Shown here in pieces: positions 7,909-26,565 of a stretch of 64,000 nt of DNA. The translations under genes were made by a program, and so were the position numbers. Location of the stretch: positions 7,929 through 71,928 of IMG/VR virus record IMGVR_UViG_3300005805_000076, one strand, 5' to 3'. Within the stretch, counting starts at the first letter, position 1. Each line of letters starts with the position of its first letter. Source of the DNA: a virus. Taxonomy: Duplodnaviria > Caudoviricetes. Below the pieces are notes generated by a model, which had not been told where the DNA came from, did no database searches, and worked only from the letters and a program-made list of their open reading frames with translations.

Positions 7909-8655
7909 ATGTCAGATCAAACAGAAAGCGAAAAGAAAAAAGAAGATTGGATTCCTTACACTTATCTGTTAATACACGATGAGACTGGGCTCTGTTATTA
8001 CGGCGTGAGGTATCAAAAAAACTGTAACCCTTCAGAATTTTGGAAAACTTACAAAACCAGCTCTAGACATGTTAAGAAATTGGTAGAAGAATACGGTGAG
8101 CAAAGCTTTTCCTTTCAAATTAGAAAGACATTTACTAACCCAACGGCAGCTAGGATGTGGGAGCATAAGGTATTACGAAGAATGCAGGTTATTCGCAGAA
8201 AAGATTTCTTAAATAAAACAGATAATATATCTATAGCACCTATGCATGGTGGCAAAAATCCAGCGTCAAGACAAGAAGTTAAAGAAAAAATAAGTAATTC
8301 TTTAAAAGAATGGCATAAAATTAACCCAAATCCTAATTTAGGAAGAGTCACTTCATCAGAAATTAAAAATAAACAAAGCCTTAAGAAACTGGGAAATAAA
8401 AATCCATTTTTTGGAAAGAAACATAGTGAAGAGAGCAAATTATTATTTTCTAATAGACAGCAAGGCGAAAAAAATTCCTTCTTTGGTTGCAAGCATAGCG
8501 AAGAAACCAAAAAAAGAATGAGCGTGTCACAGCGTGGCCGAAAGAAACCAAAAATACAATGTCCACATTGTCACCAAGCAGGGGCGCCAAATGTAATATA
8601 CAGATGGCACTATAATCATTGTAAATTAAAGAAAGATACTTATGCAGACAAATAA
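7909..8655 (+). mobile_element. free-standing GIY-YIG homing endonuclease with NUMOD3-type repeats, fused to a holin-like N-terminal peptide
   Basis: PYTYLL...CYYGVR...YKTSS; NPFFGKKHSEE and NSFFGCKHSEETK repeats. Confidence 0.8.
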
Positions 8656-9406: not shown

Positions 9407-10240
9407 ATGGATTATTATCAAGCATTGAACGTTGACAAAACTGCTAGTCAAGAAGATATCAAAAAAGCATATAGACGCCTAGCATCTAAACATCATCCAG
9501 ATAAAGGTGGTGATACTAAAAAATTTCAAGAAATCCAAACAGCTTATGATGTGTTAAGCGATCCGGCCAAACGTCAACAATACGATAACGGTGGGGCACA
9601 ACAATTTAACTTTAATCCAGGTAATTTTGGTGGACATGATATTAACGATATTTTTAGACAGTTTGGATTTCATTTTGGTGGGGGACCTGACCCATTTGCG
9701 GGATTTCGAAATCAAAGGAAAAATAAGGATCTGAGAATAGAAATTACGTTGAATTTAGCTGAAACATTAAATGATCAAACTAAAATACTAAACATCAAAA
9801 CTACGACAGGCACAAACGAAAATGTCAATTTAACTATTCCGCGTGGTGTTACTCAGGGCGCTAGTATCAAATATAGCGGTTTGGGAGATAACATGTTTAC
9901 CAACCTGCCTCGCGGTGATCTTTACATACATTTTAATATTAGGAACGACCCAAACTTTATTGTACAAGGTTTGGATTTAATTAAACAGTTGACTATAGAC
10001 TGCTTTGACGCTATATTAGGTTGTAGACAGGAAATAACTGGATTAGATGGCAAGGTGTTTGCGGTGCAGGTTCCGGCTGGTTGCCAACAAGGTATGAAGC
10101 TTAAAATTCCAGGCGAAGGACTATATGGATTTCAGAAAGATATTAAAGGTAATCTGTATATTTTAATGAATATATCTATTCCCACAAATTTAAACACAGA
10201 AGATTTAGAATTAGTTAGGACTTTGGCTAATAAAGGTTAA
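9407..10240 (+). CDS. dnaJ: DnaJ/CbpA-type chaperone without zinc finger
   Basis: DYYQAL, HPDKGG J-domain, G/F-rich linker, PRGDLY C-terminal domain. Confidence 0.92.
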
Positions 10241-10248
10241 ATATTTTT

Positions 10249-12540
10249 ATGCTACATACAAACCCAGACATTGAAACAATTATTGAAGCAGCTACCGACT
10301 TAGCGGTTGCTAAGAATCATGAATACGTGACATTGGAACATCTATTGTTGGCCATGGCTAAACATGTTCCGTTCTACAAGATCCTAGTAGAATTTGGTGG
10401 CGATGTGGATCAACTAATTGAAGACGTTGATAATTATTTAAATCAACAAACATATCTCAAAACCAATAGTAATGATTCTACCCCTAAAAAAACACATAGC
10501 TTAGAGCGAGTATTTAATAGGGCTTATACACAGGTTCTTTTCAGTGGCCGACAAAGCATGCAAATCATTGACCTCTATCTCAGCATTATGAGTGAGGATA
10601 AGAGTCATGCTTGTTATTTCCTTAACAAATACGGGTATGATCGTGCCAAATTAATTAACTACTGGAACGATGCTCACAGTAATGCTAAAGGTAAGAAAAA
10701 GTCACGTAATGCTGTAGATGCTATATTAGATGAATACTGCACTAACCTCAGTGACCTAGCAGCTAATGGCAAGATTGATCCTGTAATAGGTCGTGAATTA
10801 GAACTTGAAGAAATCGCGCATATCCTAGCTAAACGCAATAAAAGTAATGTATTAATGGTGGGTGATCCCGGTGTAGGTAAAACTGCTATAGCTGAAGGGT
10901 TAGCGTTAAACATCACTAATAAAGATGTGCCTGAATACTTACTGGATTATACTGTTTATAGCCTAGATATAGGAAGCCTATTGGCCGGCAGCAAATACCG
11001 TGGAGAATTTGAGGAAAAACTCAAAGATGTAATCAAAGCTCTTGGACTAAAAGGTAAAACAATCTTATTCATTGATGAGGCGCACCAAATGCGCGGCGCT
11101 GGCTCAGGCAGTAACAGCAGCGTGGATTTCAGCAATATGATTAAACCTGCCTTAAGCAAGGGCAATATTAAGGTTGTGGCCAGCACCACTTGGGAAGAGT
11201 TCACACAAAGTTTTGAAAAAGATCGTGCATTGATGCGCAGATTTTATAGACTCACGGTTGAAGAACCCAGCCCCGAAACTGCTAAAAACATCCTGCGCGG
11301 TTTGAAAGAACATTTTGAAGAATTCCACGGCGGTGAGATCAGCGATGAGGCTATTGAAGCAGCCGTAGATCTAAGTGTACGTTATCAAACTGATAAAAAA
11401 TTACCTGATAAGGCCATTGACCTTATTGATACTGCCAGTGCAAAACTGAAGATATCAAGCAAAAACTTTATAGTAAGACGTAGCCACATTATTGATACAT
11501 TAAGCAAATTTACTAAAATACCAGTGGAAACTTTGGACAGTGATAAGACTAAGAGTCTTACTACTTTGGATACTGATATCAAAGCAAGATTGTTTGGTCA
11601 GGATCAAGCAGTGGATAAGGTACTTGAAAAAATATATGTAAGTAGAGCTGGACTTAAAAGCCTCAACAAACCAGTGGGTAATTTCTTATTCTTAGGACCA
11701 ACTGGCACAGGAAAAACTGAACTGGCTAAATTACTTGCTGAACATTTAGGTATGAAATTATTACGCTATGATATGAGTGAGTATCAAGAAAAACATGCCA
11801 TAGCTAAACTAATAGGTGCTCCACCAGGATATGTTGGCTATGATGATAGCAATATACGCGGTGGTATGCTTATCAGTGATATTGAGAAAAACCCAAACTG
11901 TGTATTATTGTTTGATGAGATTGAAAAGGCGCATCCAGACGTTAGCAATATCTTACTCAGTATCATGGATGAAGGTGTTGTGACCAGTAGCAGCGGCAAA
12001 AAAGCAGATTGCCGTAATAGCATAGTTATTCTTACCAGTAACTTAGGTGCTGCTGAAAATGAAAAGAATACTATTGGGTTCAATGTAAATCTACAAAAAA
12101 CTGGTGAGGATGACAAAGCTGTACAAGAATTCTTCAAACCAGAATTTAGAAATCGTTTGGATGGTATTGTTAAATTCAACAGTTTAGAAGAACAACATAT
12201 CAAACTAATCGTTGGTAAGTTTATTGCTGAAATAAATGATTTGTTAAGTGATAAAAATATCAAAATTTATCTAACTGATACAGCAATAGATTATATTATT
12301 AGCAAGGGATATGATAAAAAACTAGGTGCACGGCCCTTATATAGGAAAATTGACGAATTAGTCAAAATCCCTTTAAGTAAAAAGATACTGTTTGAAAACA
12401 TTGCAAATTGTACAATAGATATTGATTACAGAGACGAATTAACTTTCGATATAGTAACCAGCAAATTTATGTACAACAAACCTAATATGGTGGACGAAAA
12501 TGGATACATCGTTGTGGAAAAACTTAAATCCAACTGTTAA
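10249..12540 (+). CDS. clpA: ClpA-like AAA+ unfoldase
   Basis: Clp N domain (HEYVTLEHLL), GDPGVGKT, GPTGTGKT, YDMSEY, TIGF loop, GARPL. Confidence 0.9.
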   Translation: MLHTNPDIETIIEAATDLAVAKNHEYVTLEHLLLAMAKHVPFYKILVEFGGDVDQLIEDVDNYLNQQTYLKTNSNDSTPKKTHSLERVFNRAYTQVLFSGRQSMQIIDLYLSIMSEDKSHACYFLNKYGYDRAKLINYWNDAHSNAKGKKKSRNAVDAILDEYCTNLSDLAANGKIDPVIGRELELEEIAHILAKRNKSNVLMVGDPGVGKTAIAEGLALNITNKDVPEYLLDYTVYSLDIGSLLAGSKYRGEFEEKLKDVIKALGLKGKTILFIDEAHQMRGAGSGSNSSVDFSNMIKPALSKGNIKVVASTTWEEFTQSFEKDRALMRRFYRLTVEEPSPETAKNILRGLKEHFEEFHGGEISDEAIEAAVDLSVRYQTDKKLPDKAIDLIDTASAKLKISSKNFIVRRSHIIDTLSKFTKIPVETLDSDKTKSLTTLDTDIKARLFGQDQAVDKVLEKIYVSRAGLKSLNKPVGNFLFLGPTGTGKTELAKLLAEHLGMKLLRYDMSEYQEKHAIAKLIGAPPGYVGYDDSNIRGGMLISDIEKNPNCVLLFDEIEKAHPDVSNILLSIMDEGVVTSSSGKKADCRNSIVILTSNLGAAENEKNTIGFNVNLQKTGEDDKAVQEFFKPEFRNRLDGIVKFNSLEEQHIKLIVGKFIAEINDLLSDKNIKIYLTDTAIDYIISKGYDKKLGARPLYRKIDELVKIPLSKKILFENIANCTIDIDYRDELTFDIVTSKFMYNKPNMVDENGYIVVEKLKSNC

Positions 12541-13419: not shown

Positions 13420-14397
13420 ATGAGTGATAAAAAAGTCAAAGCCAAAGAAGTAACCGCTAAACCCAGCAACAAACCTATTCCAAAACTAACCAAACCAATT
13501 ATGCCAGTTCCTGGTGCCGTAAAAGCACCTGAGAATCAACGTAAACAGTTTGACTTCAGTAAGGTACATGTGCATTTCGCAGTGCCTTGTTATGGTGGAA
13601 TGGTCAGTGAACCAACCATGACCAGCTTTCTACGTTTTACATTGATGGCTGCAAAGATTGGTATGAACTGGAGTTTGGATACTATGGTCAATGAAAGTCT
13701 AGTTACTAGAGCTAGAAATAACCTCTGTGCTAAGATGATGACCAATGCAGCGGCCACACATTTTATGTTTATTGACGCTGACATACGTTTTGAACCTGAT
13801 GCTATATTTGGTATGGTGGCTGCTGATAAGGATGTGATTGGTGGTTTGTATCCTAAAAAGAGTTTACCTATTGACTATGTTATTAATTTAAAGAATGGCG
13901 GTCGTATTGAAGGACCATTGTTCCAAGTTGATACACAGGGCACTGGATTCTTGTTATTTAAGAAACATGTATATCAAAAACTAATTGACTCACACCCAGA
14001 GTGCAAATATGTAGATGATATCGGTTTAGGCAAACAATTTGAACCATTCATGTACAGTATTTTTGATACTGTCATTGATGAACGTGGACATTATCTGTCA
14101 GAAGACTGGACCTTCTGTCGTCGCTGGCAAGCATTGGGTGGGGATATTTGGGCCGATAGTCGTGTATTGCTGAACCACATTGGACACTATGAGTTCAAAG
14201 GTGATCTAGCTGCTCTTGAACGCAAAGGGTTGAAGCGTATTGATACCAGTACTCCAGAGGGCAAAGCAGCATTAGATGCACATCTTAAAGCACAAAAAGA
14301 AGCGGCTGCAAAAAAGTTAGCTGAGATGGAAAATAAACCTGCTGAGGATACCGCAGCAAAAACAACCACAGAAGCAGTAGTACAACCAGCAGAATAA
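13420..14397 (+). CDS. GT-A fold glycosyltransferase-like protein
   Basis: AVPCYGG, FMFIDADI (DxD), SEDWTFCRRW. Confidence 0.75.
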   Translation: MSDKKVKAKEVTAKPSNKPIPKLTKPIMPVPGAVKAPENQRKQFDFSKVHVHFAVPCYGGMVSEPTMTSFLRFTLMAAKIGMNWSLDTMVNESLVTRARNNLCAKMMTNAAATHFMFIDADIRFEPDAIFGMVAADKDVIGGLYPKKSLPIDYVINLKNGGRIEGPLFQVDTQGTGFLLFKKHVYQKLIDSHPECKYVDDIGLGKQFEPFMYSIFDTVIDERGHYLSEDWTFCRRWQALGGDIWADSRVLLNHIGHYEFKGDLAALERKGLKRIDTSTPEGKAALDAHLKAQKEAAAKKLAEMENKPAEDTAAKTTTEAVVQPAE

Positions 14398-14418
14398 GCT
14401 ACAATCGTGTTAAATAGC

Positions 14419-14451
14419 AAGCCAGAAACAAGTGTTTCTGGCTTCTTTTTT
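14419..14451 (+). terminator. intrinsic terminator
   Basis: AAGCCAGAAAC-aagt-GTTTCTGGCTT perfect 11-bp stem plus T tract. Confidence 0.85.
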
Positions 14452-14483
14452 ACTAAATACATTATTAAAAAGCGGATTTAATT

Positions 14484-16214
14484 ATGTATGCCAACGAACT
14501 TTTTGAAGCACCAAGACGCACTATTGTATTGTATGCTGGTAGGTTTCAACCTTTTCACAAAGGACATAAAAAAGCCTACGAACATTTAGTAAAAAAGTTC
14601 GGCAGAGATAATGTTTATATCAGTACCAGCAATAAAGTAGAGCTTCCCAAAAGTCCATTTAGTTTTAGCGATAAAAGCTATTTCATGCAGATGCAGGGCA
14701 TACCAATGGATATGGTCGTTGAAAGTGCCAGCCCATATCGCAGTTTAGAATTAGTTTCTAAATTTGATCCTAACAATACCAACCTTGTAGTAGCGGTTAG
14801 CGAAAAAGACAGTGCAAGGTTTGGTAATATTGGTATGAAGAAAGGAGGCGATCTCACCTATTTTCAAAATATACCAGACAAACTCAATAAAATGGAAAGC
14901 CTAGCAAATCACGGTTATGTGTATCTTGTACCTACATTCAATTTTACAGTGTTAGGCAAACCAATGCGCAGTGCTACTGAAGTAAGGGCACAATATATTG
15001 CAGCAGACCAAGAAACACGTAAAAACATAATCAAAGATTTGTTTGGTACATATACCGCAGAAGCACAACAGATTATGGACAACAAGTTACATGAGGATGT
15101 TGAGGTAGCATCAAATGACAGTACCAGTCCAATTTCTACTGGGCAATTTGAAAGCCGTGGACATAAAATTGTTGCTCGTAAGTTAGCAGATATTGAAGCA
15201 CGTAAGAAACGTAAACGTGAAGCTGCCGAGCGTGCGGAGCAAGAACGTAAAGCCAAAGAAAAAGATCAGGATCAAAATTTAGATAAAGTAAATGAGATGG
15301 GTGGGGTTGGTGTTATTGCCAATAAGAAGCAAGCAAAAGATCCTAGATATTCTATGAGTTTAACCAAAGATGTGCGTCCAGATGCTATTGAAAAAAGTCT
15401 AAAAGCATTTAAGTTAGCTGAAGATATTGAAACAAATGTTGAGGTTATTGAGGAAAACTTACGTAAATGGTTTAAAGAAAAGTGGGTAAGATTTGGACCA
15501 GATGGAAAAATCAGAGGTGCATGTGCTAGAGACAAGGATACTGAAGGTAAGCCAAAATGTCTCCCACAATCCAAAGCTCATGCTTTGGGTAAGAAAGGTC
15601 GTGCATCAGCAGCAGCACGTAAACGCAAACAAGATCCTAATCCAGAACGCAGAGGTAAGGCAATCAATGTTAAAACGAAAGAAAATGCTATTTTTGAACT
15701 TGATCTTTTAGCACCTCGCACAACATTCTTCAAACTACAAAATGGTCGCTATGTACAGGCAGATTATCGTGCAACTGGCGGCTATGATTCAATCACATCA
15801 GCAATTAAATTCAAATTTGTTGATCCACAAACCGCTAATAATTTAGGATTAGATCAAAGATTAGCAAGTAAAGATAATAAAGCAACTATGGCAGGTGAAC
15901 CAGGAAGACGAGTCATAGCTGATCCTACAGCAATACAGCAGGGTACACCATTTAGTAAAACCAACATAGACGTTGTTGATATAAGTAATCCACCCAAAGA
16001 CTTTCCAAAAGATCTACATTATAGATTAGCAAGATGGCTAATGCAGCAGCAGATAAAATCTAAAAAACCTGTAGCCGAAGCGGGTAAAAAAGATGCGTGT
16101 TACCATAAAGTCCGCAGCCGTTATAAAGTATGGCCCAGTGCATATGCATCAGGTGCGTTAGTTCAATGCCGTAAGAAGGGTGCAAAAAATTGGGGCAAAG
16201 GTTCTAAGAAATAA
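14484..16214 (+). CDS. modular protein: HIGH-type nucleotidyltransferase domain plus basic modules
   Basis: AGRFQPFHKGH; K/R-rich modules WFKEKWVR..KCLP and KKDACYHKV..YASGALVQCRK. Confidence 0.75.
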   Translation: MYANELFEAPRRTIVLYAGRFQPFHKGHKKAYEHLVKKFGRDNVYISTSNKVELPKSPFSFSDKSYFMQMQGIPMDMVVESASPYRSLELVSKFDPNNTNLVVAVSEKDSARFGNIGMKKGGDLTYFQNIPDKLNKMESLANHGYVYLVPTFNFTVLGKPMRSATEVRAQYIAADQETRKNIIKDLFGTYTAEAQQIMDNKLHEDVEVASNDSTSPISTGQFESRGHKIVARKLADIEARKKRKREAAERAEQERKAKEKDQDQNLDKVNEMGGVGVIANKKQAKDPRYSMSLTKDVRPDAIEKSLKAFKLAEDIETNVEVIEENLRKWFKEKWVRFGPDGKIRGACARDKDTEGKPKCLPQSKAHALGKKGRASAAARKRKQDPNPERRGKAINVKTKENAIFELDLLAPRTTFFKLQNGRYVQADYRATGGYDSITSAIKFKFVDPQTANNLGLDQRLASKDNKATMAGEPGRRVIADPTAIQQGTPFSKTNIDVVDISNPPKDFPKDLHYRLARWLMQQQIKSKKPVAEAGKKDACYHKVRSRYKVWPSAYASGALVQCRKKGAKNWGKGSKK

Positions 16215-18434
16215 ATGCATATCTTTGATTTTGATAATCTTGATGAAAAAGTTAATGCTGAGGTATTCCTACCCAGCTTTAATGAACAACACAGAGAAAT
16301 TATTGCTAAAAACGGCAAACCATATGTATTGATAGCTAAACCAGGACCACGTTCTTTACATCAAAAATTTCGTGATCCCAGTCGATTGTTTAGCATAGAA
16401 GCTTATCCAAAGGTAAAAGATCAAGTTTCTAAATATCGTGTAGGTTTAGTAAACTTTGTTAATCACGGCGATCATGTGGAAGCTGAGGATGTACACGTTG
16501 ATCCAAAACATCGTCGCAAAGGTTTAGCAAAGGCCATGTATCAATTTGCTAAAGACGTTGTGGGCGATATTAAGCCTAGTTCAAAACAAACAAGTATGGG
16601 CAAGCAAATGTGGAGTGGATTCAGTGGCGATAAGTCATTAAATGAAGCTTCAGCCAAATCTGTATTAGATTATGTTAAAAGTCAGCATCATGATTTCAGA
16701 TTAGATGATGCAATTTTAGGTCACAAATCATGGCAATTAGTACAGATGCCACTAAGCAAGTTACGCATACCTGATCCTGAATCAGGTGAGGATGAATTAG
16801 ATCCTTATGACCGTGTACAGTGGATGGATATGAGTCATGTGGACGAAATTACCCCGCAGGACATTAAACGTCGTCCTATTGTTGCAGATAATGAAGGCAA
16901 CATAATAGACGGAAATCATCGTGCTCTAGCAGCTAGATTGATGGGTATGCCAACTATACCAACTTGGGTTCCAATAAACATGACAGACAAAGAACAGTCT
17001 TTACAGGAACGAGTGAGCAGTGTCCTATTCCATTACACTAATATCTATGCTGCTATGAAAATATTAGAATCTGGTGAATTTCAACTCAGCAGCTCTTTGG
17101 GCACAGATGTTGAATCTCAATATGCACCGAAAGGATATCCTTATTTTCTTAGTGCTACCCGTACTCGTACTGGTGGATATCACGACATTATAGGTGATAC
17201 TGCGGTGATGTTTGTACTAGATGGCGATTGGTTTAACCAACGTTATCCTGGTAAATCTGTAGATTATTGGGGCAATAGAGATCCGTTACAATCTTATCAC
17301 AGAGCTCATGAAGCTGAGGATCGTATATTCAGCCAAGAACCTTCAATCCCCATTAATGGGGTACGAGCAGTACATGTATTAGTAAAGCGTGATTCAGATG
17401 AAAACCGCAAAGCGTGGGGACGTAAGGTGTTAATCGCTGCTAAAAAGAGAAACATACCAGTATATCTTTACGACGAAAAAGAAACATGGCGGTCATTGGA
17501 TAGCAGCCGTGCCGTGTCCTCAGATTATTTAAAGGGGCAGGATCCGGCTGCTGGCCGTGGTACTAGAGGTCATCGTGGATATCTCATGCCTTGGATGGAA
17601 TTATTGCAGGCTCAGAATAAGAGTCAGTTAAGTAAACGTGCAGATAGCATACGTTACGGTTTAGCCTACACATACGATAAAGCTGAGTCAGTACGCGGGT
17701 TAAGTACTGATCTCAGCAATGCTAGAAAACCTGATGCTGGACCTGACAGGGAACATGCTGTAAAAATAATCAATTTTATGCGTCGTAATGGTTTATCAAC
17801 TATAAAAGATTTGGTGGATTTTCTAGCTAAGAAATGGGAGCCTAAAAAGCAGGCTGTGGGAGAAAACTTTGCGGATGGTAAAAAGCCTGGGCGTAAGGGT
17901 CTAAGTAAAAGAATGGGAGTACCTACAAAGGCCAGTGTAAGTAAACTTAGAAAGATTGCCAAATCCAGCAGTGGAGAAAAACAGAGAATGGCACACTGGT
18001 TAGCCAATATGAAAGCAGGCAAAAAGAAAATGACCAAAGAATCAAAACAGCAACCTGATCTACCTCAATTATTGAAACAATTTTTCCCTATAGCAATGAA
18101 AGTATTAAAGCTGGATCATTTGCCTAAGATTGAGTTAGAAAAGCATATAGAAGCACATGATGGGCAAGCTACGTTTGGCAGGTTTGTAAATGGAGAAAAG
18201 ACCATATATCTAGCAATAATGAACAGGCATCCCATAGACATTTTACGTACTTTAGCACATGAATTAGCACATTATAAGCAGTTAGTGGATAACAGATTAG
18301 ATGCGGATAGTGGTAGAACTGGCAGTCCTGAAGAAAATGAGGCACATGTTAAAGCTGGCATTATAATGCGTTTATTCAACAAGAAGTATCCTGAAACCTT
18401 AAATTTAGCACCGATAACCGCAAAGTCAAAATAG
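16215..18434 (+). CDS. modular protein: GNAT, ParB/Srx-like, ART-like, basic module and HExxH peptidase domains
   Basis: VHVDPKHRRKGLA; IIDGNHRA; FHYT..LSATR..EAEDR; TLAHELAH. Confidence 0.75.
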   Translation: MHIFDFDNLDEKVNAEVFLPSFNEQHREIIAKNGKPYVLIAKPGPRSLHQKFRDPSRLFSIEAYPKVKDQVSKYRVGLVNFVNHGDHVEAEDVHVDPKHRRKGLAKAMYQFAKDVVGDIKPSSKQTSMGKQMWSGFSGDKSLNEASAKSVLDYVKSQHHDFRLDDAILGHKSWQLVQMPLSKLRIPDPESGEDELDPYDRVQWMDMSHVDEITPQDIKRRPIVADNEGNIIDGNHRALAARLMGMPTIPTWVPINMTDKEQSLQERVSSVLFHYTNIYAAMKILESGEFQLSSSLGTDVESQYAPKGYPYFLSATRTRTGGYHDIIGDTAVMFVLDGDWFNQRYPGKSVDYWGNRDPLQSYHRAHEAEDRIFSQEPSIPINGVRAVHVLVKRDSDENRKAWGRKVLIAAKKRNIPVYLYDEKETWRSLDSSRAVSSDYLKGQDPAAGRGTRGHRGYLMPWMELLQAQNKSQLSKRADSIRYGLAYTYDKAESVRGLSTDLSNARKPDAGPDREHAVKIINFMRRNGLSTIKDLVDFLAKKWEPKKQAVGENFADGKKPGRKGLSKRMGVPTKASVSKLRKIAKSSSGEKQRMAHWLANMKAGKKKMTKESKQQPDLPQLLKQFFPIAMKVLKLDHLPKIELEKHIEAHDGQATFGRFVNGEKTIYLAIMNRHPIDILRTLAHELAHYKQLVDNRLDADSGRTGSPEENEAHVKAGIIMRLFNKKYPETLNLAPITAKSK

Positions 18435-18450
18435 TAGATTAATTAAAATC

Positions 18451-18458
18451 TATAAATA
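18451..18458 (+). promoter_or_regulatory. T4 late promoter consensus
   Basis: exact TATAAATA 20 nt before ATG 18479. Confidence 0.65.
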
Positions 18459-18478
18459 CATAAAGCTGAGGATAGAAT

Positions 18479-20167
18479 ATGAAAAGCAAAGATTTTTTAA
18501 ATGAAAATATTGTTATGGATGCACAAGAGATGCATCAAGATCACGAAGTACAAATGGCACGAGAAGAGTTATATCATGCCGCAGAAAATGCCATTGCTCT
18601 GCATAAATTGCTGCGTCATGTCAGTGAAACACAGGGTTTAGAGGGTTGGGTCAGCAGCAAAATCACGCTAGCTGGTGATTATCTCAAAACCGTTCGTGAG
18701 TATTTAGAATATGAATTAATGACCCTAGCAAGTCCTAGTCCTAATGTAGCGGACAATACACAGTTACCTATTGCTGAAAGCCAAAGTGTGGCGGAGGGCA
18801 TCAAAGGAGAAATAGCAGGTGGCACTCTTGGAGCTTTAGTAGGTGGTGCAGCAATGGGTCCAAACCCAATTGGAACTACTATAGGCAGCGCTCTTGGTGG
18901 TGCTGCTGGCTCTGCGATTGGTGGTCGCTGGGAATATGGAAAACCATTGAAGGAAAAACAACAAATAGATGAAATTGCGCCTTTACTTGCAGCGGGTGCT
19001 AGACTATTTATTGCTGCTGCCCCAAAGATTGCACAGGTAGTTGGAAAAGCTGGGCAGGCAGGAGTCCGTGGTGCTGGACAGGCAGCAAAAGCAGGTGCAG
19101 AAATCGCTGCTAAAAATGCAGGGCAAATTGGTGTTGGAGTAGGTGCTTACGAAATTGGGTCAACTGTAGCGGACATTGCCAAAGAAATAACCAGCAAGAT
19201 GGGGAACGCATTAGATCAAAAAACAGTGTTAGAACTTGCAAATGTAGCGTTTAAGTTTGCTATTCCTGCAGGCGTTGTACTTGCGGTATTATATGGTGGC
19301 AAGAAGGCTATAGATTCTTTGTTTGATAAATCAACTACACGACAAGGTGTGGCGGAAGGCTTGACAGAAGCTAGAAATAGTTTATTTGCCTTTGTAAAGC
19401 AACATTTTCCAAGTTGGCCTGATTATGTGTTGAAAGACTTCTTATATCCACAAGCCAAGGGCATCCGTGACCAAGCAGAGTTAGATGATTTTCTAAAAAG
19501 AAATAAACAAGATTTTGGTAATTGTAAATGGACACTGACTAAACTGCCTATAACATTTGATATCTTTACACCAAAAACTCAGCGTATGCTCGCTAGTCGT
19601 GAAGGTGGTAGTTCTAATCCTTTTCAAGTTCCACGAGATGCTGAAAGACACGCACTACAATCACAAATGATTCAGCAAAAGGGTGTGAGTGCAGAACCAA
19701 TTATTGTTGCTAAATTATCAAACGGTTATGATTTGATTGAAGGTTGGCATAGGACTATTCAGCATTTGAAGGCATTCCCGCAAGGATATACTGGCCCTGC
19801 TTGGGTCTGCACTGGAGCTACATACAAAAGTGAAAGCGTAGAGCAAGGTGTGGCGGAAGCAACAGGTGACCCACAGTTTGATAAGATGCTAAAAGCTATT
19901 ACCAATAAAAAAGCAGTAGCAAAACAACAAAAAACGGATGCTAAACAACAAGCACGTGATGCTTTTGGAGGAATGTTTGGTGGTAACAATCCTGCTGATA
20001 AACTTGGCATTAGGAAGAAAGATGTCAAAGAAAATGCCAGCGCAGGTGCAAGTGGAGCAGGATCAGTGGCCACAGTAGTAAAAGGTGGCAAAGGCAAAAC
20101 CAATTTGTTGGGTGGACCAGAATATAAGGGACATAACCCATTTAAGAAACTAGGCAAGAAAAAATGA
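18479..20167 (+). CDS. modular protein with Gly/Ala-rich hydrophobic segments and a ParB-like domain
   Basis: glycine-zipper-like GGTLGALVGGAA; PIIV..LIEGWHR; three VAE linkers. Confidence 0.7.
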   Translation: MKSKDFLNENIVMDAQEMHQDHEVQMAREELYHAAENAIALHKLLRHVSETQGLEGWVSSKITLAGDYLKTVREYLEYELMTLASPSPNVADNTQLPIAESQSVAEGIKGEIAGGTLGALVGGAAMGPNPIGTTIGSALGGAAGSAIGGRWEYGKPLKEKQQIDEIAPLLAAGARLFIAAAPKIAQVVGKAGQAGVRGAGQAAKAGAEIAAKNAGQIGVGVGAYEIGSTVADIAKEITSKMGNALDQKTVLELANVAFKFAIPAGVVLAVLYGGKKAIDSLFDKSTTRQGVAEGLTEARNSLFAFVKQHFPSWPDYVLKDFLYPQAKGIRDQAELDDFLKRNKQDFGNCKWTLTKLPITFDIFTPKTQRMLASREGGSSNPFQVPRDAERHALQSQMIQQKGVSAEPIIVAKLSNGYDLIEGWHRTIQHLKAFPQGYTGPAWVCTGATYKSESVEQGVAEATGDPQFDKMLKAITNKKAVAKQQKTDAKQQARDAFGGMFGGNNPADKLGIRKKDVKENASAGASGAGSVATVVKGGKGKTNLLGGPEYKGHNPFKKLGKKK

Positions 20168-22962
20168 GTGAAATGAAAAAATTGCTGGAAGCGGTGGACA
20201 ATATGAGTAAGGCCGCTGAAAAATCACGTGGACCAAAATTTCCTGGATATTGGAAAGGCACTGATCCCGCCAGTAAAGCTAAATCTAAAATGGTTGGTTC
20301 TGCTGAAAGTAAACATAGCTTGATTAAAGATTTAGATAAGCATCTCAAAGAAACAGCAGTGCAACGTAAATTAAATGAGGACTTTGAAGAATTTAAACAG
20401 GACAACAAAATTAACCCTCAAGATAGTGTAAAATTAGATGTTCCTCTGCTGATTAGATTAATGGAATATGCAAGGGAAGATGCTAAAGACGATATGGATT
20501 TACATAGAGTGGCATCTAATTTAATCAAATTAGCAGCCAACGGCAAAACACTTAATATGCAAGATTATGATCAAGCAGTGGACCAAGCATTGTCTGAATA
20601 TGGTAATAAACAAAACCCTAATACACAAACAACCACACCAGGAGCAAGTGGTGCGGCACAAGCCGATGCTGAAAACAGCGCACAGGCTAGAACTACTGAT
20701 GCAGCAGTTCAAAAAAATGTAGCTGCATTGAAGACCATTGAACCAGAATTAAACGTTACTCAAACTAAAACAGCCATACAGAAAACAGATGTACCTGGTG
20801 AGCAGTTAACCCCAGGTGAGCTAGCCCAAACTAAAAAGTTAAGCAGCGTAATTGAACCAGCATTGAGTGATCCACAATTAGGACCACAAATAACAAGTCT
20901 ATTGCGTAAGGCAGGACAATTAGAAAAAGCACAAACAGCAGCTAATAAAGCAGGAAAGTAAAAATGTTTATATTTGACTTATTTGAAGATAATGGATCAA
21001 AGGATCCGTATAACCGCAGTCCCTATGACAGAGGGGGTGCTGATGCTTGGTATCATAGAGGCAAAAATCCACATAAAATTGTTAATGGAAAAGAAGTTAA
21101 ACTTACAGATCCTGCTGAAATTGCCGAATATCTAAAAGGTTATGAGGCTGAAGGTGTAACAAACAAATATCAAGGTAAAACTTACGAAAGTGATATCAGC
21201 GGACTTATGCATGCCGCAAAGTATCTAAATCGTGTATTTAGAATCACTGCAAAAACAGCAGAGGGTGATACTAAGAAATTTAAGGTACGTGCTCAAAGTG
21301 AACGTGTAGCTCGTGAAAAGTTTCTACAACATTATTCACAGGCTGAAATATTAAATGTAGAAGAAGTCAAAGTTAACGAAGGAGATAATCAAATCTCCGT
21401 AAAAGAATTAGGAAATGTAATTGCTGATCACATCGAAAGTCGTTTACCACAATTGTTTAAAAGGTATGGCTATGAAGTAATGGCAGATGCGATAATGTCA
21501 GTAGCAGAAAAAAATGCTGGTATAGAGGAATTAAAGCCACATCTAGTAAGCAGCATGATGCGTGAAGTGTTAGACAAAGTAAGAAATCGCTTGCAAGAGA
21601 TGGATGCTCATATGTATCCTAGCCTAAAACAACAGGGTATCAATGCTCGTCGTGACGGACACAAGGAAACTGATAATCCATTCAGCGAAGGCAGTCACGA
21701 ATATAAACAATGGCAACAGGGTTGGAGGGAAGCCAACGAAGAAGAACATAAAGTCCGTAATACCAAAAGTTCCAACGATACCGTAATTCGCGCAAGTGGT
21801 TCTAAACAAGAGTACGGTGATTATAAACAATGGAACAATGCTGCTAAACAGCAAGGCTATGATGTTTATGCAAAAGGTGCTGCCGATGGCAAGTATGTAG
21901 CAAAGGTAAAGCTACCAGGTGCAGTATTCACTGAAATCGTAGGTGAATTTGATAAGTCCAGTGGGTCAGGTTACTTATATACTAAATCAAAAATGAATGA
22001 AGTTTTTGCAGATCAGCAACAAGAAAACTTTGGCGATGGTAGAACAGCGGACGAGTTAAACATTGGTGATGATGTCATCATTGCCGGTGCTGTACAATTC
22101 CAAGGTGCCACTGGTATTATTGATAGCTTTGGTCGTGATAAACGTTTTGTGGTTGTGAATCTATACAATCACGGTAAGCATAGTTTCCACAGCAGTGATG
22201 TGGAAGGCAATGAGTATGCTGATAGTGACGAAGAGGAAGCGGAACTAAACCGTTATGGTGAACGTGATCATGGTCTATTTGGTGATGACGATCGTGATGA
22301 CGACGATGACCTGCGAGAAGGTTATACACTCAAGAAGACCGCTGTCTATAAAGAGTTAATCCCTGGTGATCCAGATGAATATCTAGATGATATACTCAGC
22401 AAAGATACCGATTACGACATAATCAATAACAAAACTAGAAAGGTAGTAGGCACTGCTAGTTGGACCACAGACGACTACATGGGTCCAGGTGCGCTAAAAA
22501 TTACCATGAACAATGGTGCCACTAGATATCTAGATATCTGGGATAGTGAAAAGGGTAATCCGCAAACTGCATTCAATCGCTTTGTAAAAGATCCTAGGAC
22601 CGCCAAAAAATATAAGGATCAAGGTGTGGCGGAAGACAACAGATTTGACGAACCACTCACAGGTTACCACATCGTGTACCGTAAAAGTAACAACCCTGTG
22701 GTCAATACTCCCAGTTTTGAAACACGAGATGCAGCACAGAAATACCTCATGACGCGAATGTTCGATAATCACCAAGATTACAGAGTGGTTCATACCGCCA
22801 ATGTAGGAGTCACCGAAACCTCAGATTACTTCCGTCGCAGAGAGCGCGAAGAAGCTATCATCAGCGGCCAGAAACCAGCCCGTAAACGTAAGCCAGCTCA
22901 GACCAGTGATTATGCTCGTCGTAGAGAGCAAGAAAAAAATAAAGAGCAAGGTGTGGCGGAAG
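19343..22962 (+). repeat. dispersed perfect 16-nt repeat CAAGGTGTGGCGGAAG (QGVAE) x4
   Basis: copies at 19343, 19844, 22620, 22947; partial copy GTGTGGCGGA at 18786. Confidence 0.9.
20164..20961 (+). CDS. modular hypothetical protein
   Basis: 265-aa ORF with LLE/LKE/LNE/LSE-delimited segments. Confidence 0.7.
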   Translation: MSEMKKLLEAVDNMSKAAEKSRGPKFPGYWKGTDPASKAKSKMVGSAESKHSLIKDLDKHLKETAVQRKLNEDFEEFKQDNKINPQDSVKLDVPLLIRLMEYAREDAKDDMDLHRVASNLIKLAANGKTLNMQDYDQAVDQALSEYGNKQNPNTQTTTPGASGAAQADAENSAQARTTDAAVQKNVAALKTIEPELNVTQTKTAIQKTDVPGEQLTPGELAQTKKLSSVIEPALSDPQLGPQITSLLRKAGQLEKAQTAANKAGK

Positions 22963-23696
22963 GCATGTTTGACATGTTCAAATCTCAACCCTTGCCAACC
23001 AAACCAGAAACTGTCACTTTAGGTAAATTTGAGGTCAACGTGATACCAAGGCAAGACCGAGGCTACATTGGTTTTGCCTGGCACGATTCACAAGGCAAGG
23101 AAAATTATACAGAAACTGGTACTAGGGATTTAAAGACTAGAAAAGAATTGATGTCTATTATAAAAGACGAAATTCTCTATGTAGAAAAACAAATAAAACT
23201 GATCAAAAATCAAAATGTGTCTGAGGATGCAAGCAAAAAGAATGCAGTTCGTAGACTTCAGAAAATGTTGAACAGAAAATATGACGCTAATCTTGATGTT
23301 GATGGAATTCTTGGACCACTAACACTTAAATCAATTAACAAGTTTATGCCTGATGCTAAAATAGAACCTGCAGATCAACCCAATAAGACTCCTGCTGTGC
23401 AAGGCAAAAAAATTAAAAAGACAACGGGCGAAACTAAGTTAGACGAAAAATGTTGGGATACTCACAAACAAGTAGGCATGAAAAAGAAGGGCAGCAAAAT
23501 GGTGCCAAATTGTGTACCAAAAGAATCAATTGACGAATCTAAACAATACTATAATGTAATAGGTACGGCAGAAAAAGAATTGAAATCTAACTTTGGAATG
23601 GAAAAAGATCAGCAGGGTTGGCACTTGACAGAATCTGCTACTCCACAACAACGGTTAGATGCTTTGCGAGCTTTTGGCTCCCCACTGAACGGATAA
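20964..23696 (+). CDS. large modular protein including a peptidoglycan-binding-like domain
   Basis: 910 aa; VRRLQKML..VDGILGPLT; CWDTHKQVGMKKKG..VPNCVP module; two QGVAE linkers. Confidence 0.75.
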   Translation: MFIFDLFEDNGSKDPYNRSPYDRGGADAWYHRGKNPHKIVNGKEVKLTDPAEIAEYLKGYEAEGVTNKYQGKTYESDISGLMHAAKYLNRVFRITAKTAEGDTKKFKVRAQSERVAREKFLQHYSQAEILNVEEVKVNEGDNQISVKELGNVIADHIESRLPQLFKRYGYEVMADAIMSVAEKNAGIEELKPHLVSSMMREVLDKVRNRLQEMDAHMYPSLKQQGINARRDGHKETDNPFSEGSHEYKQWQQGWREANEEEHKVRNTKSSNDTVIRASGSKQEYGDYKQWNNAAKQQGYDVYAKGAADGKYVAKVKLPGAVFTEIVGEFDKSSGSGYLYTKSKMNEVFADQQQENFGDGRTADELNIGDDVIIAGAVQFQGATGIIDSFGRDKRFVVVNLYNHGKHSFHSSDVEGNEYADSDEEEAELNRYGERDHGLFGDDDRDDDDDLREGYTLKKTAVYKELIPGDPDEYLDDILSKDTDYDIINNKTRKVVGTASWTTDDYMGPGALKITMNNGATRYLDIWDSEKGNPQTAFNRFVKDPRTAKKYKDQGVAEDNRFDEPLTGYHIVYRKSNNPVVNTPSFETRDAAQKYLMTRMFDNHQDYRVVHTANVGVTETSDYFRRREREEAIISGQKPARKRKPAQTSDYARRREQEKNKEQGVAEGMFDMFKSQPLPTKPETVTLGKFEVNVIPRQDRGYIGFAWHDSQGKENYTETGTRDLKTRKELMSIIKDEILYVEKQIKLIKNQNVSEDASKKNAVRRLQKMLNRKYDANLDVDGILGPLTLKSINKFMPDAKIEPADQPNKTPAVQGKKIKKTTGETKLDEKCWDTHKQVGMKKKGSKMVPNCVPKESIDESKQYYNVIGTAEKELKSNFGMEKDQQGWHLTESATPQQRLDALRAFGSPLNG

Positions 23697-23701
23697 CTAA
23701 C

Positions 23702-24532
23702 GTGAGGGTTAAGGAATTCATCAACGAAGCACCACTGGCAGATTATATGCCATTGGGTGACTTTGAAAAAGGTAAAGGTGGCTTCCGTCACGATGTTGAT
23801 AAGAAGTTAGTTACCAATCCTGTTGCTATTGGCAAGGTCTATAAATTCTTTAGCCGTACACCTTACGATATACGTATATTTCCAGTTCAAATCAAAGGCG
23901 GTGGTCGTTATTTAGAAACGGGCGAGGTGAATGTAGACGAATTGGTAAAAATTGTGGGACAAGGTAATGCTCAACGTATTTTAGGTGGGCACAGCCCTGA
24001 TACCATAACCATAGTGTTTACCAACAACACAGGTGCAGAACGCATACCTCTCACTGCTTGGATGATGGCACATAGAATTGGACATGCTATACGTCGCGGT
24101 GGAGCATCCCGAGCATGGGATAATGCAGTCAAACACTTTTGGAATGGTATTGACGAAATCATGCGAGATGTTTATCGTTTGCCGATAGAAAGAAGTAGCT
24201 TGTACACCATGTCAAATCCTGCTTGGTATAAGGCACTGATAGATGCTATTGGAACCATGCGCAGTGCAAGACAGAAAACCATTGCTCGTCCCAGTGAATT
24301 TGTCTACGAAATGTTTGCGCAGTATCTCAACACTGGCGAAGTAAAATTTAATCCTGCACCAAAAAATTTAATGTCAAGACAACAAGCATGGGGACGTAAT
24401 CAACCAATAAGTGCCATCAATGATGCTACACAGCGTGAAGCCACTCAAATGTTGGAAACATTAAGCTATGATATGGAATTAATGTTTAATGATGTTATGA
24501 GTGCGGCTATGGGCAAGATATACGTGATGTAA
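23702..24532 (+). CDS. zincin-like protein with HRxxH variant motif (GTG start)
   Basis: MRVKEFINE start; WMMAHRIGHAI and downstream YEMFAQY. Confidence 0.6.
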   Translation: MRVKEFINEAPLADYMPLGDFEKGKGGFRHDVDKKLVTNPVAIGKVYKFFSRTPYDIRIFPVQIKGGGRYLETGEVNVDELVKIVGQGNAQRILGGHSPDTITIVFTNNTGAERIPLTAWMMAHRIGHAIRRGGASRAWDNAVKHFWNGIDEIMRDVYRLPIERSSLYTMSNPAWYKALIDAIGTMRSARQKTIARPSEFVYEMFAQYLNTGEVKFNPAPKNLMSRQQAWGRNQPISAINDATQREATQMLETLSYDMELMFNDVMSAAMGKIYVM

Positions 24533-24534
24533 CT

Positions 24535-25425
24535 ATGAGAGCCCAAGAACTATTACAAGAACGTGCAAGTCCGGTATTATATCACTATACCCATGCTGAG
24601 GCCGCATTAGATATACTTACAAATAATCGTTTCCAATTATCCATCAGCACCGGAAACAAAAGCGAACAAGAATATGCTCCGGCTGGCTACGATTATTTCC
24701 TCAGTTTAACAAGATCAAAAGTGGGCGATTACCATCGCTGGGCCAGTAATGGTGCTGTTATGTTTGTGCTGAATGGAACTTGGTTTAACGGCAGATATCC
24801 CGTGAAGCCAATAGATTATTGGGCACGAGCATGGAATTATCCTGGCAGTGCCAGAACTCGAGAAAGCGAAGACAGGTTATTCAGCAAAACTCCTGAGATA
24901 GCAGCAGATGCCATAACACAGGTTCATGTATTGATCAAAGAGCAGCAGCAATTTCGCAGTCCCACCATACGCAAGGTATTGATAGCTGCCAAATCTCGAG
25001 GATTACCAGTGTATCTTTACACTGATGAATCTGCTTGGAGACTGCAAGATACTAGACGCAGTGTCAGCATCAAACAAGCAGCCGCATTACTTAAAGGTAT
25101 AGAACCCAGCAGACATCGTGGTGTTGGTAGAAATTATTTAGAAGCTTGGATAGAATTGTTGCACAAAAAATCATCACAAGAACTCAGCGAACCAGCAAAA
25201 AAACTACGTTATAACTTATTCTACTATGCATCACCTAGGGAAGATCAAAATTTATCCATAGACATCAGTAATGCTCGCAAACCTGGTGAGGGTAAAACTA
25301 GAGCTGCTGCCATTGAGATATTGAAATTTATGCGTCAAAATCGCATGCAATCAACTGTAGACTTTAAGAATTATATCAAAGAAAAATGGCAAGAAATTGT
25401 TAATCGAGAGAAGAAATCCTCATGA
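24535..25425 (+). CDS. ART-like domain protein, paralogue of the internal domain of 16215..18434
   Basis: LYHYT..FLSLTRS..VMFVLNGTWF..IDYW..ESEDR. Confidence 0.6.
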   Translation: MRAQELLQERASPVLYHYTHAEAALDILTNNRFQLSISTGNKSEQEYAPAGYDYFLSLTRSKVGDYHRWASNGAVMFVLNGTWFNGRYPVKPIDYWARAWNYPGSARTRESEDRLFSKTPEIAADAITQVHVLIKEQQQFRSPTIRKVLIAAKSRGLPVYLYTDESAWRLQDTRRSVSIKQAAALLKGIEPSRHRGVGRNYLEAWIELLHKKSSQELSEPAKKLRYNLFYYASPREDQNLSIDISNARKPGEGKTRAAAIEILKFMRQNRMQSTVDFKNYIKEKWQEIVNREKKSS

Positions 25426-26126
25426 GAGCCTCAGAATTTACACCAACCAACCAATTAGTAATATTTGATATAGATGACACACTATTTCATACCACAGCTA
25501 AGATATTGGTGCGCGATAAAGAAACTGGTGAAACTATTCGCAGTCTCACAAATCAAGAATTTAACGACTACAAACTAAAACCCAACGAAGTCTACGATTT
25601 TGGTGAATTTCGCAATGCTGAAAAGTTTGAAGAAGAAAGCATACCAATTGGCCCAATGCTGGATCAATTGCGGCAAGATCTTAGAGCAGGACACAGAGTA
25701 GTGATGTTAACTGCTAGAGAAGATTTTGATAACCAAAAAACTATTTGGCGGACATTTAAACGTCATGGCATTGATATAAACCGCGATGTACATTTATATA
25801 GAGCAGGTAACTTGCCTGGCAGCGAATCTCCAGCAGAAAAGAAAGCTAAATTCGTTAGACTGTGGCTGAATAAACATTTGTATGATAGCGTTACATTATA
25901 TGATGACAGCACCACTAACCTCAGAGTTTTTAAAGCTCTGCAGAAAGAATACCCAACTGTTAAATTTGTTGCACATCATGTAACACAAGGTGGTAAAACT
26001 AAAAAGATTGAAGGCGTAGACTTTACGGCACCACGTGGTGTAGCTAACCCAATTGGATCAGACAATGTGATTAGTCCTGTAGGATCAGTTCCAACTAATC
26101 AACGTATAAATAAAAAGAAGGCATAG
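25422..26126 (+). CDS. HAD-superfamily phosphatase
   Basis: IFDIDDTL motif I, LTAR motif II, YDDS motif IV. Confidence 0.8.
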   Translation: MRASEFTPTNQLVIFDIDDTLFHTTAKILVRDKETGETIRSLTNQEFNDYKLKPNEVYDFGEFRNAEKFEEESIPIGPMLDQLRQDLRAGHRVVMLTAREDFDNQKTIWRTFKRHGIDINRDVHLYRAGNLPGSESPAEKKAKFVRLWLNKHLYDSVTLYDDSTTNLRVFKALQKEYPTVKFVAHHVTQGGKTKKIEGVDFTAPRGVANPIGSDNVISPVGSVPTNQRINKKKA

Positions 26127-26130
26127 AACT

Positions 26131-26565
26131 ATGTACGAACTTATTAAAGCAATGAAAATTGCATTTGCTACTGAATATACTTTTTATTTAAAAGCTCACT
26201 TCTATCATTGGAATGTAGAAGGTGCAGACTTCTTCCAATATCATGAACTGTTTGGAAAAATCTACGAAGAAGTGTTTGATAGCATTGACGACTTTGCAGA
26301 AAATATACGCAAGTTAGGTAGCTATACACCAGGTAGCTATACTAGATTCAGCGCATTGTCAAAGGTAGATGAAGAACTTCAAGTCGCCCCTGCTGAAGCT
26401 ATGATAAAAGAACTATTGGCTGATAGTGATAAATGCGTAGAACTATTCAAAATGGTGTTTGCCATCAGCGAACGCGAGAAGGAACATGGTCTCAGCGATT
26501 TCCTAGCTGGACGCATGGATGCACATAGAAAACATAGCTGGATGCTACGTGCATTACTGAAATAA
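26131..26565 (+). CDS. dps: Dps / DNA-binding ferritin-like protein
   Basis: HFYHWNVEG..F...HELF..IYEE..D.FAE.IR.LG; HRKHSWML. Confidence 0.9.
   Translation: MYELIKAMKIAFATEYTFYLKAHFYHWNVEGADFFQYHELFGKIYEEVFDSIDDFAENIRKLGSYTPGSYTRFSALSKVDEELQVAPAEAMIKELLADSDKCVELFKMVFAISEREKEHGLSDFLAGRMDAHRKHSWMLRALLK

Follow-up and report, generated by a model that had tools for sequence, protein, structure and literature searches.

A locus of probable T4-type head-cargo polyproteins in an uncultured jumbo phage

Eight contiguous open reading frames (ORFs), all on the plus strand and nearly unspaced, fill positions 14484-26126 of the stretch of viral DNA analysed here, a 64-kb window (positions 7,929 to 71,928) out of the 71,928-base IMG/VR virus record IMGVR_UViG_3300005805_000076. 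CheckV puts the completeness of this record at ~21%, and it is therefore a fragment of a jumbo phage genome. The eight genes, called o1 to o8 in what follows, encode proteins built from one or several unrelated modules, and seven of them open with an 8-11-residue peptide that ends in hydrophobic-x-Glu, a motif found again at most of the borders between modules. As we argue below from these features, the products of the eight genes probably travel in the capsid, are separated by proteolysis and reach the host together with the DNA. Only two real gaps interrupt the locus, one before o1 and one before o3; at the other junctions stop and start codons overlap or lie 0-5 nucleotides apart, and o3 to o8 are tightly coupled.

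The N-terminal leaders read MYANELFE, MHIFDFDNLDE, MKSKDFLNE and MSEMKKLLE in o1 to o4, and MFIFDLFE, MRVKEFINE, MRAQELLQE and MRASEF in o5 to o8, translations that match those quoted in an earlier reading of this DNA by a model that saw only the letters and their ORFs (the sequence-only reading). Its observation that consecutive genes start with similar peptides ending in Glu holds for seven of the eight, and fails for o8, which has MRASEF only. The o6 leader can be read solely from a GTG at 23702, a start supported by the homologue on contig L057 (G and L numbers are our handles for the records compared), which begins MRATEFITE/APLQDY, where the slash marks the predicted cut. Under a strict two-class pattern, M[RK]xx[ED][FLI][LIV]xE or Mxxx(x)[LF]FE, leaders are present in 5/8 genes of the locus and in 0/87 other ORFs of the contig (Fisher p ~1e-6), and under a loose one in 6/8 and 9/87, respectively. 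The two classes of leader, MRAxEF(L/I)xE and MxxxxLFE, are interchangeable; the same two are found on ADP-ribosyltransferase (ART), o6, HAD, GNAT and other modules. In AlphaFold2 models the leaders are disordered and lie outside the fold (residues 1-7 of o7 and 1-10 of o6), and the folds of both proteins begin right after the predicted cut site. In the T4 internal protein IPIII's capsid targeting sequence, residues 4 and 7 target the protein and residues 8 and 10 direct its processing (PMC9026906); the leader of the locus aligns with it position by position.

Behind the leaders stand very different proteins. o1 (14484-16214; 576 residues; leader MYANELFE/A) begins with an NMNAT/cytidylyltransferase-like module at residues ~9-204 (Pfam CTP_transf_like, E 8e-5; phrog_727, E 4e-44; phrog_395; PDB NMNAT 2qjt, E 3.5e-4), continues with a basic coiled region and small modules after VNE271, LAE313 and ~TKE400, and ends, after PVAE532, with a Cys-containing, basic module of 44 residues. 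Over its C-terminal half, o1 has 35% identity to a cyanophage protein whose annotation is T4-GC0119 structural protein; that protein, too, consists of small basic units with Cys, strung together with xE between them. The last module (residues 533-576; window 16080-16211) is a ~40-residue basic two-Cys unit, CYHKV...WPSAYASGALV.CRKKGAKNWG, that is 73-93% identical across many jumbo-phage contigs (cf. L004, 3722-5311) and nearly identical in the T4-like cyanophage structural protein, a conservation far above that of the neighbouring modules.

o2 (16215-18434; 739 residues; leader MHIFDFDNLDE/K) strings together a GNAT module up to LNE144 (Pfam Acetyltransf_1, 23.9 bits, over the cut-off), a ParB-like module from 145 to LQE265 (phrog_620, E 6.5e-6), an ART-fold module from 266 to ~VGE550, a basic module at ~551-603 after AVGE550, and an HExxH zincin at ~604-739 (HELAH motif; phrog_87 metalloprotease, E 2.6e-5). 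Residues 260-542 are a paralogue of o7, at 45% identity, and the paralogous block begins right after LQE in both proteins. The basic module exists in the relative G003 as a stand-alone 68-residue gene beginning MRASEFVTE/NFADGK. Sequence searches against PDB sequences gave no match for the zincin and ParB-like modules.

o3 (18479-20167; 562 residues; leader MKSKDFLNE/N) has a helical module up to IAE100 / SVAE106, a glycine-zipper, Ala/Gly-rich hydrophobic region at residues 107-293 (window 18797-19357; Pfam Gly-zipper_Omp, E 7e-4), a ParB-like cassette at 294-460 flanked by two QGVAE linkers, and a C-terminal part consisting of a small module from 461 to VKE518 and a basic tail. The presence of such a region in a putative head-cargo protein suggests a membrane-active ejection role. 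In G001, the 536-residue ORF that lies immediately upstream of the portal gene (L132, 39-1649) has a similar region. o4 (20164-20961; 265 residues; leader MSEMKKLLE/A), whose start overlaps the o3 stop (ATGA), comprises two small modules and a Q/A/T-rich tail; its blocks 1-82 and 80-160 are homologous in other contigs, and Pfam and PHROG profile searches gave no family match for it.

o5 (20964-23696; 910 residues; leader MFIFDLFE/D) has at least eight modules, with blocks bounded by LRE452, GVAE557, VTE618, GVAE666 and VSE754, and PHROG matches to phrog_9737 and phrog_727. It contains an RMF-like stretch at residues 223-260 (window 21630-21743; Pfam RMF, E 7.6e-6, 26.3 bits for a cut-off of 27.9); a ribosome-hibernation-like module would be unusual as packaged cargo. 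Towards its C-terminal end lie a PG_binding_3-like block at 755-828 (Pfam E 0.003, under the cut-off), a Cys-basic block from 829 to IDE858 and a final block. We also noted a 23-nucleotide near-repeat at 17861-17883 (in o2, after VGE) and 22022-22044 (in o5, after QQE), which encodes E/NF(A/G)DG(K/R), the start of a basic module, and which may be a second, decaying DNA-level junction.

The three remaining genes are shorter. o6 (23702-24532; 276 residues from the GTG; leader MRVKEFINE/A) is a single compact domain (model pLDDT 93) of a viral family with 1009 representative clusters at 50% identity, and in ~40% of the best matches the module stands at the end of a longer protein. W120, H124, R125, H128 and E199 are invariant in the family (an HRxxH...E motif). 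This layout resembles a gluzincin with Arg replacing the catalytic Glu. The fold had no significant PDB match (Foldseek best E 0.23; wide VIA-align search best Z 4.7), and the weak matches that recur, to lethal factor, thermolysin and PPEP zincins, are not significant and give a hint only. o7 (24535-25425; 296 residues; leader MRAQELLQE/R) combines an ART-fold domain (residues ~10-173) with a helical C-terminal domain (pLDDT 87). Foldseek matched it to DarT (7omw, E 1e-4), and the wide VIA-align search to Tpt1 (7yw4, Z 10.0, root-mean-square deviation 2.4 over 112 residues) and DarT (7yk3, Z 8.8), while a family profile search returned chance matches only; at the level of the model, an ART fold closest to Tpt1/KptA and DarT is confirmed. 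Its family (294 clusters at 90% identity) includes many stand-alone proteins and others fused to GNAT, NUDIX, ASCH or hydrolase domains, and H17, Y54, S57, R60, E110, E112 and R114 are invariant in the family alignment. A homologue adjoins an RNA or DNA ligase gene in phages K566 (L151), JA29 (L152) and Salmonella phage Sen-NF (L156), and in view of these neighbours a Tpt1-like role in nucleic-acid repair is as plausible as a DarT-like modifying role. In Dickeya phage JA29 and in Slickus01 the homologues occur in tandem pairs. In o8 (25422-26126; 234 residues), finally, MRASEF is followed at once by a phosphatase fold of the HAD type with DxDxT (PNK-phosphatase-like; Pfam DUF2608, E 7e-7, and HAD; phrog_415, E 1.4e-9), and its homologues begin MRAHEFEP or MRATEISP, with the targeting half of the leader present.

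Most of the domains named in the sequence-only reading are thus borne out: the nucleotidyltransferase, GNAT, ParB-like, zincin and HAD calls each have a profile match, and the ART-like call is upheld at the fold level by the likeness of o7 to Tpt1 and DarT. Its PG-binding call has just the weak Pfam match in o5, and of its basic DNA-binding units the basic blocks are present, the DNA-binding role being read from composition only.

The (L/I/V)xE linkers that had been picked out between the domains (LNE, LQE, VAE, IDE and VKE) are all found in the proteins, and the enrichment of xE at domain borders that was to be expected is there. We compared the eight proteins with all ORFs of the ~120 viral contigs that have the 16-nucleotide linker word described below. 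Similarity comes in blocks, and 14 of the 21 well-supported block borders lie at most 8 residues from an [LIV]xE site, against 5.1 expected (p ~2e-4); if A or T is also permitted at P3, 18 of the 21 are at an xE site. Where a block starts at a predicted site, the partner phage has hydrophobic-x-Glu at that place in 69/99 cases, compared with 16/99 at random positions, and these 69 partner junctions are divided into 54 that are internal and 15 just behind an ORF start. Alignments of two large cargo families sharpen this picture. In the o7 family, with the first strand of the fold as the anchor of the logo, Glu stands at P1 in 90/90 junctions and L, I or V at P3 in 90/90, whereas P2 is variable, and the positions before the junction read M-R-A-(Q/N/E)-E-F-L-x-E. 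In the o6 family, anchored on the (A/M)-P module start, the same two positions are kept in 111/113 and 106/113 junctions, and P2 again varies. The o6 pattern is alike in 73 stand-alone and 40 internal copies, the latter often reading QGVAE/APLADY, and internal copies keep P1 Glu and P3 L/I/V as strictly as N-terminal ones do (39/40 for o6, 6/6 for o7). The predicted o6 and o7 junctions match the published cutting rule of T4 gp21.

One of these linkers is fixed at the DNA level. All QGVAE linkers in the locus (4/4) are encoded by the identical 16-nucleotide word CAAGGTGTGGCGGAAG; with the codon usage of the locus, in which GCG is the rarest Ala codon (8.5%), a QGVAE peptide would be encoded by exactly this word with a probability of 0.005. 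The copies, found on the plus strand by a linker word scan, lie at 19343..19358 (QGVAE/G) and 19844..19859 (QGVAE/A), the left and right borders of a shared cassette in o3, at 22620..22635 (QGVAE/D) and at 22947..22962 (QGVAE/G), and a variant two bases off the exact word, CAAAGTGTGGCGGAGG (QSVAE/G), lies at 18782..18797 on the same strand. More than 120 IMG/VR contigs contain the exact word, often in several copies, and it is nearly always an in-frame QGVAE in a long ORF. Two of these contigs, L007 and L021, have 94% nucleotide identity exactly across 19344-19859, the o3 cassette between two 16-mers; nucleotide similarity to L010 and L106 ends at 22635, that to L119 ends at 19360, and that to L110 starts at 19855. 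Because nucleotide similarity starts and stops on the word, whole cassettes are common to phages at the linker word, and recombination at the word is the likely cause of this sharing. We considered the 16-nucleotide word as an internal ribosome-binding or start signal and rejected this, as ATG follows just one of the four copies. In the literature, the string QGVAE turned up in alpha-synuclein papers only. To us the odds are evenly balanced that QGVAE is doubly coded, serving as a prohead-protease site in the peptide and as a fixed crossover word for in-frame cassette exchange between co-infecting giant phages.

The split family-B DNA polymerase (PolB) of this phage has ~50% identity to that of Pseudomonas phage PA5oct and its relatives and is also related to those of Salicola phage SCTP-2 and Agrobacterium phage Atu_ph07, and three large uncultured contigs, G002, G003 and G004, have a PolB 71-72% identical to it; a megablast search of the locus against cultured phages gave no match. 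In G003, leader- and GVAE-bearing genes lie at 212-248 kb, directly upstream of PolB at 250 kb, the same arrangement as in the window, and the head module is ~215 kb away from PolB. This module runs from the portal through an acidic core protein, an S77 protease and a scaffold to the Gp23 capsid protein. Several LxE and IxE sites follow one another at the start of the scaffold, and the N-terminus of the capsid protein, YLKE/NASAG, is close to the DVKE/NASAG of o3. Peptidase_S77 was found in the relatives G001, G003 and G005, and not in the contigs G002 and G004. In G001 (a contig of 524,565 bp) PolB matches twice, on opposite strands and near both ends (18719-20563 and 509349-511193); the pattern suggests an artefact of assembly or a long terminal duplication in inverted orientation, and therefore the unit genome may be smaller than the record.

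Cultured phages provide a natural control, in the form of o7 homologues in eight complete genomes in which S77 was called by Pfam. A Glu-terminated leader is present on the o7 homologue in 3/3 S77-positive phages and in 0/5 S77-negative ones. The former are Vibrio phage K566 (MKKFNEFANE), Salicola phage SCTP-2 (MNLNE) and Alishewanella phage Slickus01 (MKIEQLYESILEE), the last with a second o7 paralogue that has a similar leader. In the latter (JA29, Sen-NF, HRDY3, Lu11 and RHEph12) the fold starts within a few residues of the Met or after a Glu-free stretch. The literature lends indirect support: relatives of the first module of o1 have been detected in virions. A putative cytidylyltransferase was found in purified S-SM1 virions (PMC3037559), and another in those of S-CREM2, whose authors describe such enzymes as frequent in cyanophage virion proteomes (PMC10665884).

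As for the surroundings of the eight genes, a terminator-like hairpin read from the sequence (AGCCAGAAAC and GTTTCTGGCT, then a T run; 14420..14451, plus strand) ends the upstream gene and sets the locus apart from it. Late-type promoters had been called at 14454 and 18451. The second call stands, with an exact T4-type late promoter word, TATAAATA, at 18451..18458 on the plus strand, 20 nucleotides before the o3 start; the first is weaker, since 14452..14459, on the same strand and 24 nucleotides before the o1 start, has a weak late-promoter-like ACTAAATA with two mismatches to TATAAATA that is not significant alone. There are 6 copies of TATAAATA in the window, against 7.9 expected, i.e. no enrichment, and 5/5 plus-strand copies sit 18-69 nucleotides upstream of a start codon. 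The word is absent before the G003 capsid gene and before the leader-bearing genes of G003, and the promoter evidence for the locus is weak. Directly upstream of the locus, at window 9407-12540, lie a DnaJ-like gene and a Clp-type ATPase (763 residues; phrog_4871, E 3e-242); the gene for a Dps-like DNA-binding protein follows the locus at 26131, with its own TATAAATA, and PolB is a further neighbour. The G+C content is 0.39-0.41 over window 14001-26000 and 0.33-0.38 in the flanks.

We put the probability at about three in four that these genes encode T4-type head-cargo polyproteins and make up a cargo region, variable in content, of a jumbo phage whose head is of the T4 type. Targeting, cleavage, head retention, ejection and biochemical targets are what we infer under this reading, in the following manner. 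By analogy with the T4 capsid targeting sequence, the leader would attach its protein to the scaffolding core while the prohead assembles. A gp21-type serine protease (Peptidase_S77) would then cut after the Glu of (L/I/V)-x-E, which would take off the leader and, in the four long proteins, free modules at QGVAE, LNE, LQE, LDE, IDE and other sites. The products would remain beside the DNA inside the head and pass into the cell when the phage infects. The delivered set would comprise an NMNAT-like nucleotidyltransferase, a GNAT, two ParB-like modules, two Tpt1/DarT-like ART-fold domains, a zincin, a HAD phosphatase, the o6 domain and several small basic peptides, and QGVAE, fixed as a 16-nucleotide word, would mark the borders where modules pass in frame between phages. 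The core of what the sequence-only reading had proposed, T4-type targeting leaders with prohead-protease sites between modules, is supported by the restriction of the leaders to the locus, the junction logos, the co-occurrence with S77, the head module of the relatives and the virion detection of cyanophage relatives of the o1 module.

Several observations pull in the opposite direction. Genes for Peptidase_S77, the scaffold and the Gp23 capsid protein were not found on the 72-kb fragment; synteny with G003 would place the head genes beyond the contig end, and this absence is therefore uninformative either way. In G002, the closest large relative (99% complete by CheckV), there was no S77 or Gp23 match either; if the spacing seen in G003 holds, G002, G004 and the present contig would all stop short of the head module, which would explain the negative searches. 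The eight phages behind the co-variation of leader and S77 are not phylogenetically independent, the S77-positive ones being interrelated, and Pfam may miss divergent proteases among the S77-negative ones. The cargo locus is set among replication and chaperone-like genes, not head genes, and a single one of the two promoter calls is clean. Finally, two well-supported borders, at ~residue 400 of o1 and ~residue 603 of o2, fall at TKE and not at [LIV]xE, and o8 and its homologues pass from MRAxEF directly into the HAD fold, without a hydrophobic-x-Glu site.

How the proteins would be processed can also be seen otherwise. The leader might be all that is lost, with the internal xE sites uncut and full-length multidomain proteins packaged, in the way that the virion RNA polymerase (vRNAP) of phage N4 and some plasmid polyvalent proteins travel unprocessed (PMC5512222); cutting in T4 itself requires structural accessibility. 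However, the internal copies of o6 and o7 keep the junction as strictly as the N-terminal ones, and the same module may be either internal after xE or alone behind a leader, a combination that makes little sense unless both give rise to one and the same free N-terminus, so that we regard leader-only cutting as unlikely. Or the proteins might be packaged and delivered but processed, like the polyvalent proteins of Iyer et al. 2017, by a zincin of their own (MPTase) and not by the prohead protease. In favour of this, o2 ends with the HExxH domain matching phrog_87, zincin modules recur in related polyproteins (13 matches), and the repertoire of ART, ParB, GNAT and zincin is that of polyvalent proteins, for which MPTase autoprocessing has been proposed (PMC5512222). 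Against this, the zincin is in just 1/8 proteins, the junctions, including those that end single-domain leaders, follow the S77 rule (Glu at P1, hydrophobic at P3), and the leader co-occurs with S77 proteases; we judge self-processing very unlikely.

A more radical explanation does away with the head altogether: the eight proteins would be ordinary cytoplasmic phage enzymes, and the leader and xE junctions mere recombination scars or linker preferences of cassette shuffling. Most junctions, however, are not QGVAE, and across them P2 and the codons vary and only P3 and P1 are kept, which points to selection on the protein. Nor would scars account for homologues that lack the leader in phages without an S77 protease, or for homologues of the o1 module in virions. 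What such an explanation does accommodate is that QGVAE is conserved as DNA in >120 viral contigs, with 4/4 exact copies at p 0.005, that cassette borders fall exactly on the word and that the locus lies among replication genes. On balance we find it highly improbable, and return to head-cargo polyproteins as the preferred reading.

In this light, the locus shows both similarities to and differences from several known systems. With IPI, IPII, IPIII and Alt of T4 (PMC9026906, PMC3012670) it has in common a short hydrophobic-x-Glu leader on unrelated proteins and the (L/I)xE cutting rule. Both are hypervariable gene sets away from the head genes, both include ART-fold cargo, in Alt and in one class of module here, and a T4-type head module that includes a Peptidase_S77 protease is found in relatives of this phage. 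The ART of Alt is of the R-S-E type. In contrast to the single small proteins of T4, the present locus, which is known from sequence, has strings that reach eight modules or more, with internal sites, a cargo of NMNAT-like, GNAT, ParB-like, Tpt1/DarT-like ART, zincin and HAD enzymes, and a DNA-fixed linker. Homology to IPI, IPII, IPIII or Alt was not detected, none of the eight proteins having a Pfam or PHROG match to them; the T4 internal proteins are mutually unrelated, and so the absence of such homology has no bearing on the mechanism.

Polyvalent proteins with several domains that are delivered by the virion, and ARTs packaged in the head, have been predicted by the Aravind group (Iyer, Burroughs, Anand, de Souza and Aravind 2017, PMC5512222; PMC9503650). 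As in those proteins, several unrelated conflict-type domains are present per polypeptide (here in o1, o2, o3 and o5), and the proteins are predicted to be delivered with the DNA and released by proteolysis. Polyvalent proteins, however, would be released by their own MPTase and are linked to the virion through MuF/portal fusion or neighbourhood, whereas the present locus is unified by a T4-type leader and S77-type sites, has few zincins and lies beside PolB. A zincin is found in o2 only, next to the non-significant zincin-like hints in o6, and there is no fusion to, or neighbourhood with, a head, portal or MuF gene. The head and ejection proteins of phiKZ, 201phi2-1 and SPN3US, with gp175/gp245-type proteases (PMC9026906, PMC10052503, PMC5694885), are likewise cut after Glu at a short motif. 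They also have redundant sites in propeptides and a cargo that is ejected into the host, but belong to another lineage, one with inner body proteins, and have a different P3 motif. The cut motif of the phiKZ type is S/A/G-x-E. To our knowledge, shuffled polyprotein cassettes or a DNA-fixed linker have not been described in these giants. With regard to cassette exchange, Arbiol, Comeau and Krisch reportedly described in 2010 PeSL-type mobile regulatory cassettes by which genes of T4-type genomes are shuffled. Those cassettes also have short conserved DNA words at their borders and allow modular exchange between T4-type phages; theirs, however, are intergenic, with promoters and terminators, while here the word lies inside an ORF and keeps both the frame and a peptide motif. 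In the literature we did not find the combination of a leader, many internal S77-type sites in long jumbo-phage polyproteins and a DNA-fixed linker described.

If the reading as head-cargo polyproteins is true, the leader and the hydrophobic-x-Glu rule identify capsid-loaded, DNA-codelivered proteins of uncultured T4-related giant phages, whose packaged proteome would become readable from sequence alone. The o6 and o7 families by themselves hold ~1000 clusters (50% identity) and ~300 clusters (90% identity), and would belong to a large set of enzymes for host takeover or anti-defence in the first minutes, most of them uncharacterised, with NAD-related, nucleic-acid-modifying and acetylating ones among them. 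The principle of T4 capsid targeting, already used for packaging foreign proteins, would extend from small single proteins to protease-released polyproteins. And if the linker is indeed doubly coded and the head-loading leader universal, the locus would be a natural case of in-frame cassette exchange, by which this clade of phages would maintain a combinatorial, fast-reshuffled library of injected enzymes.

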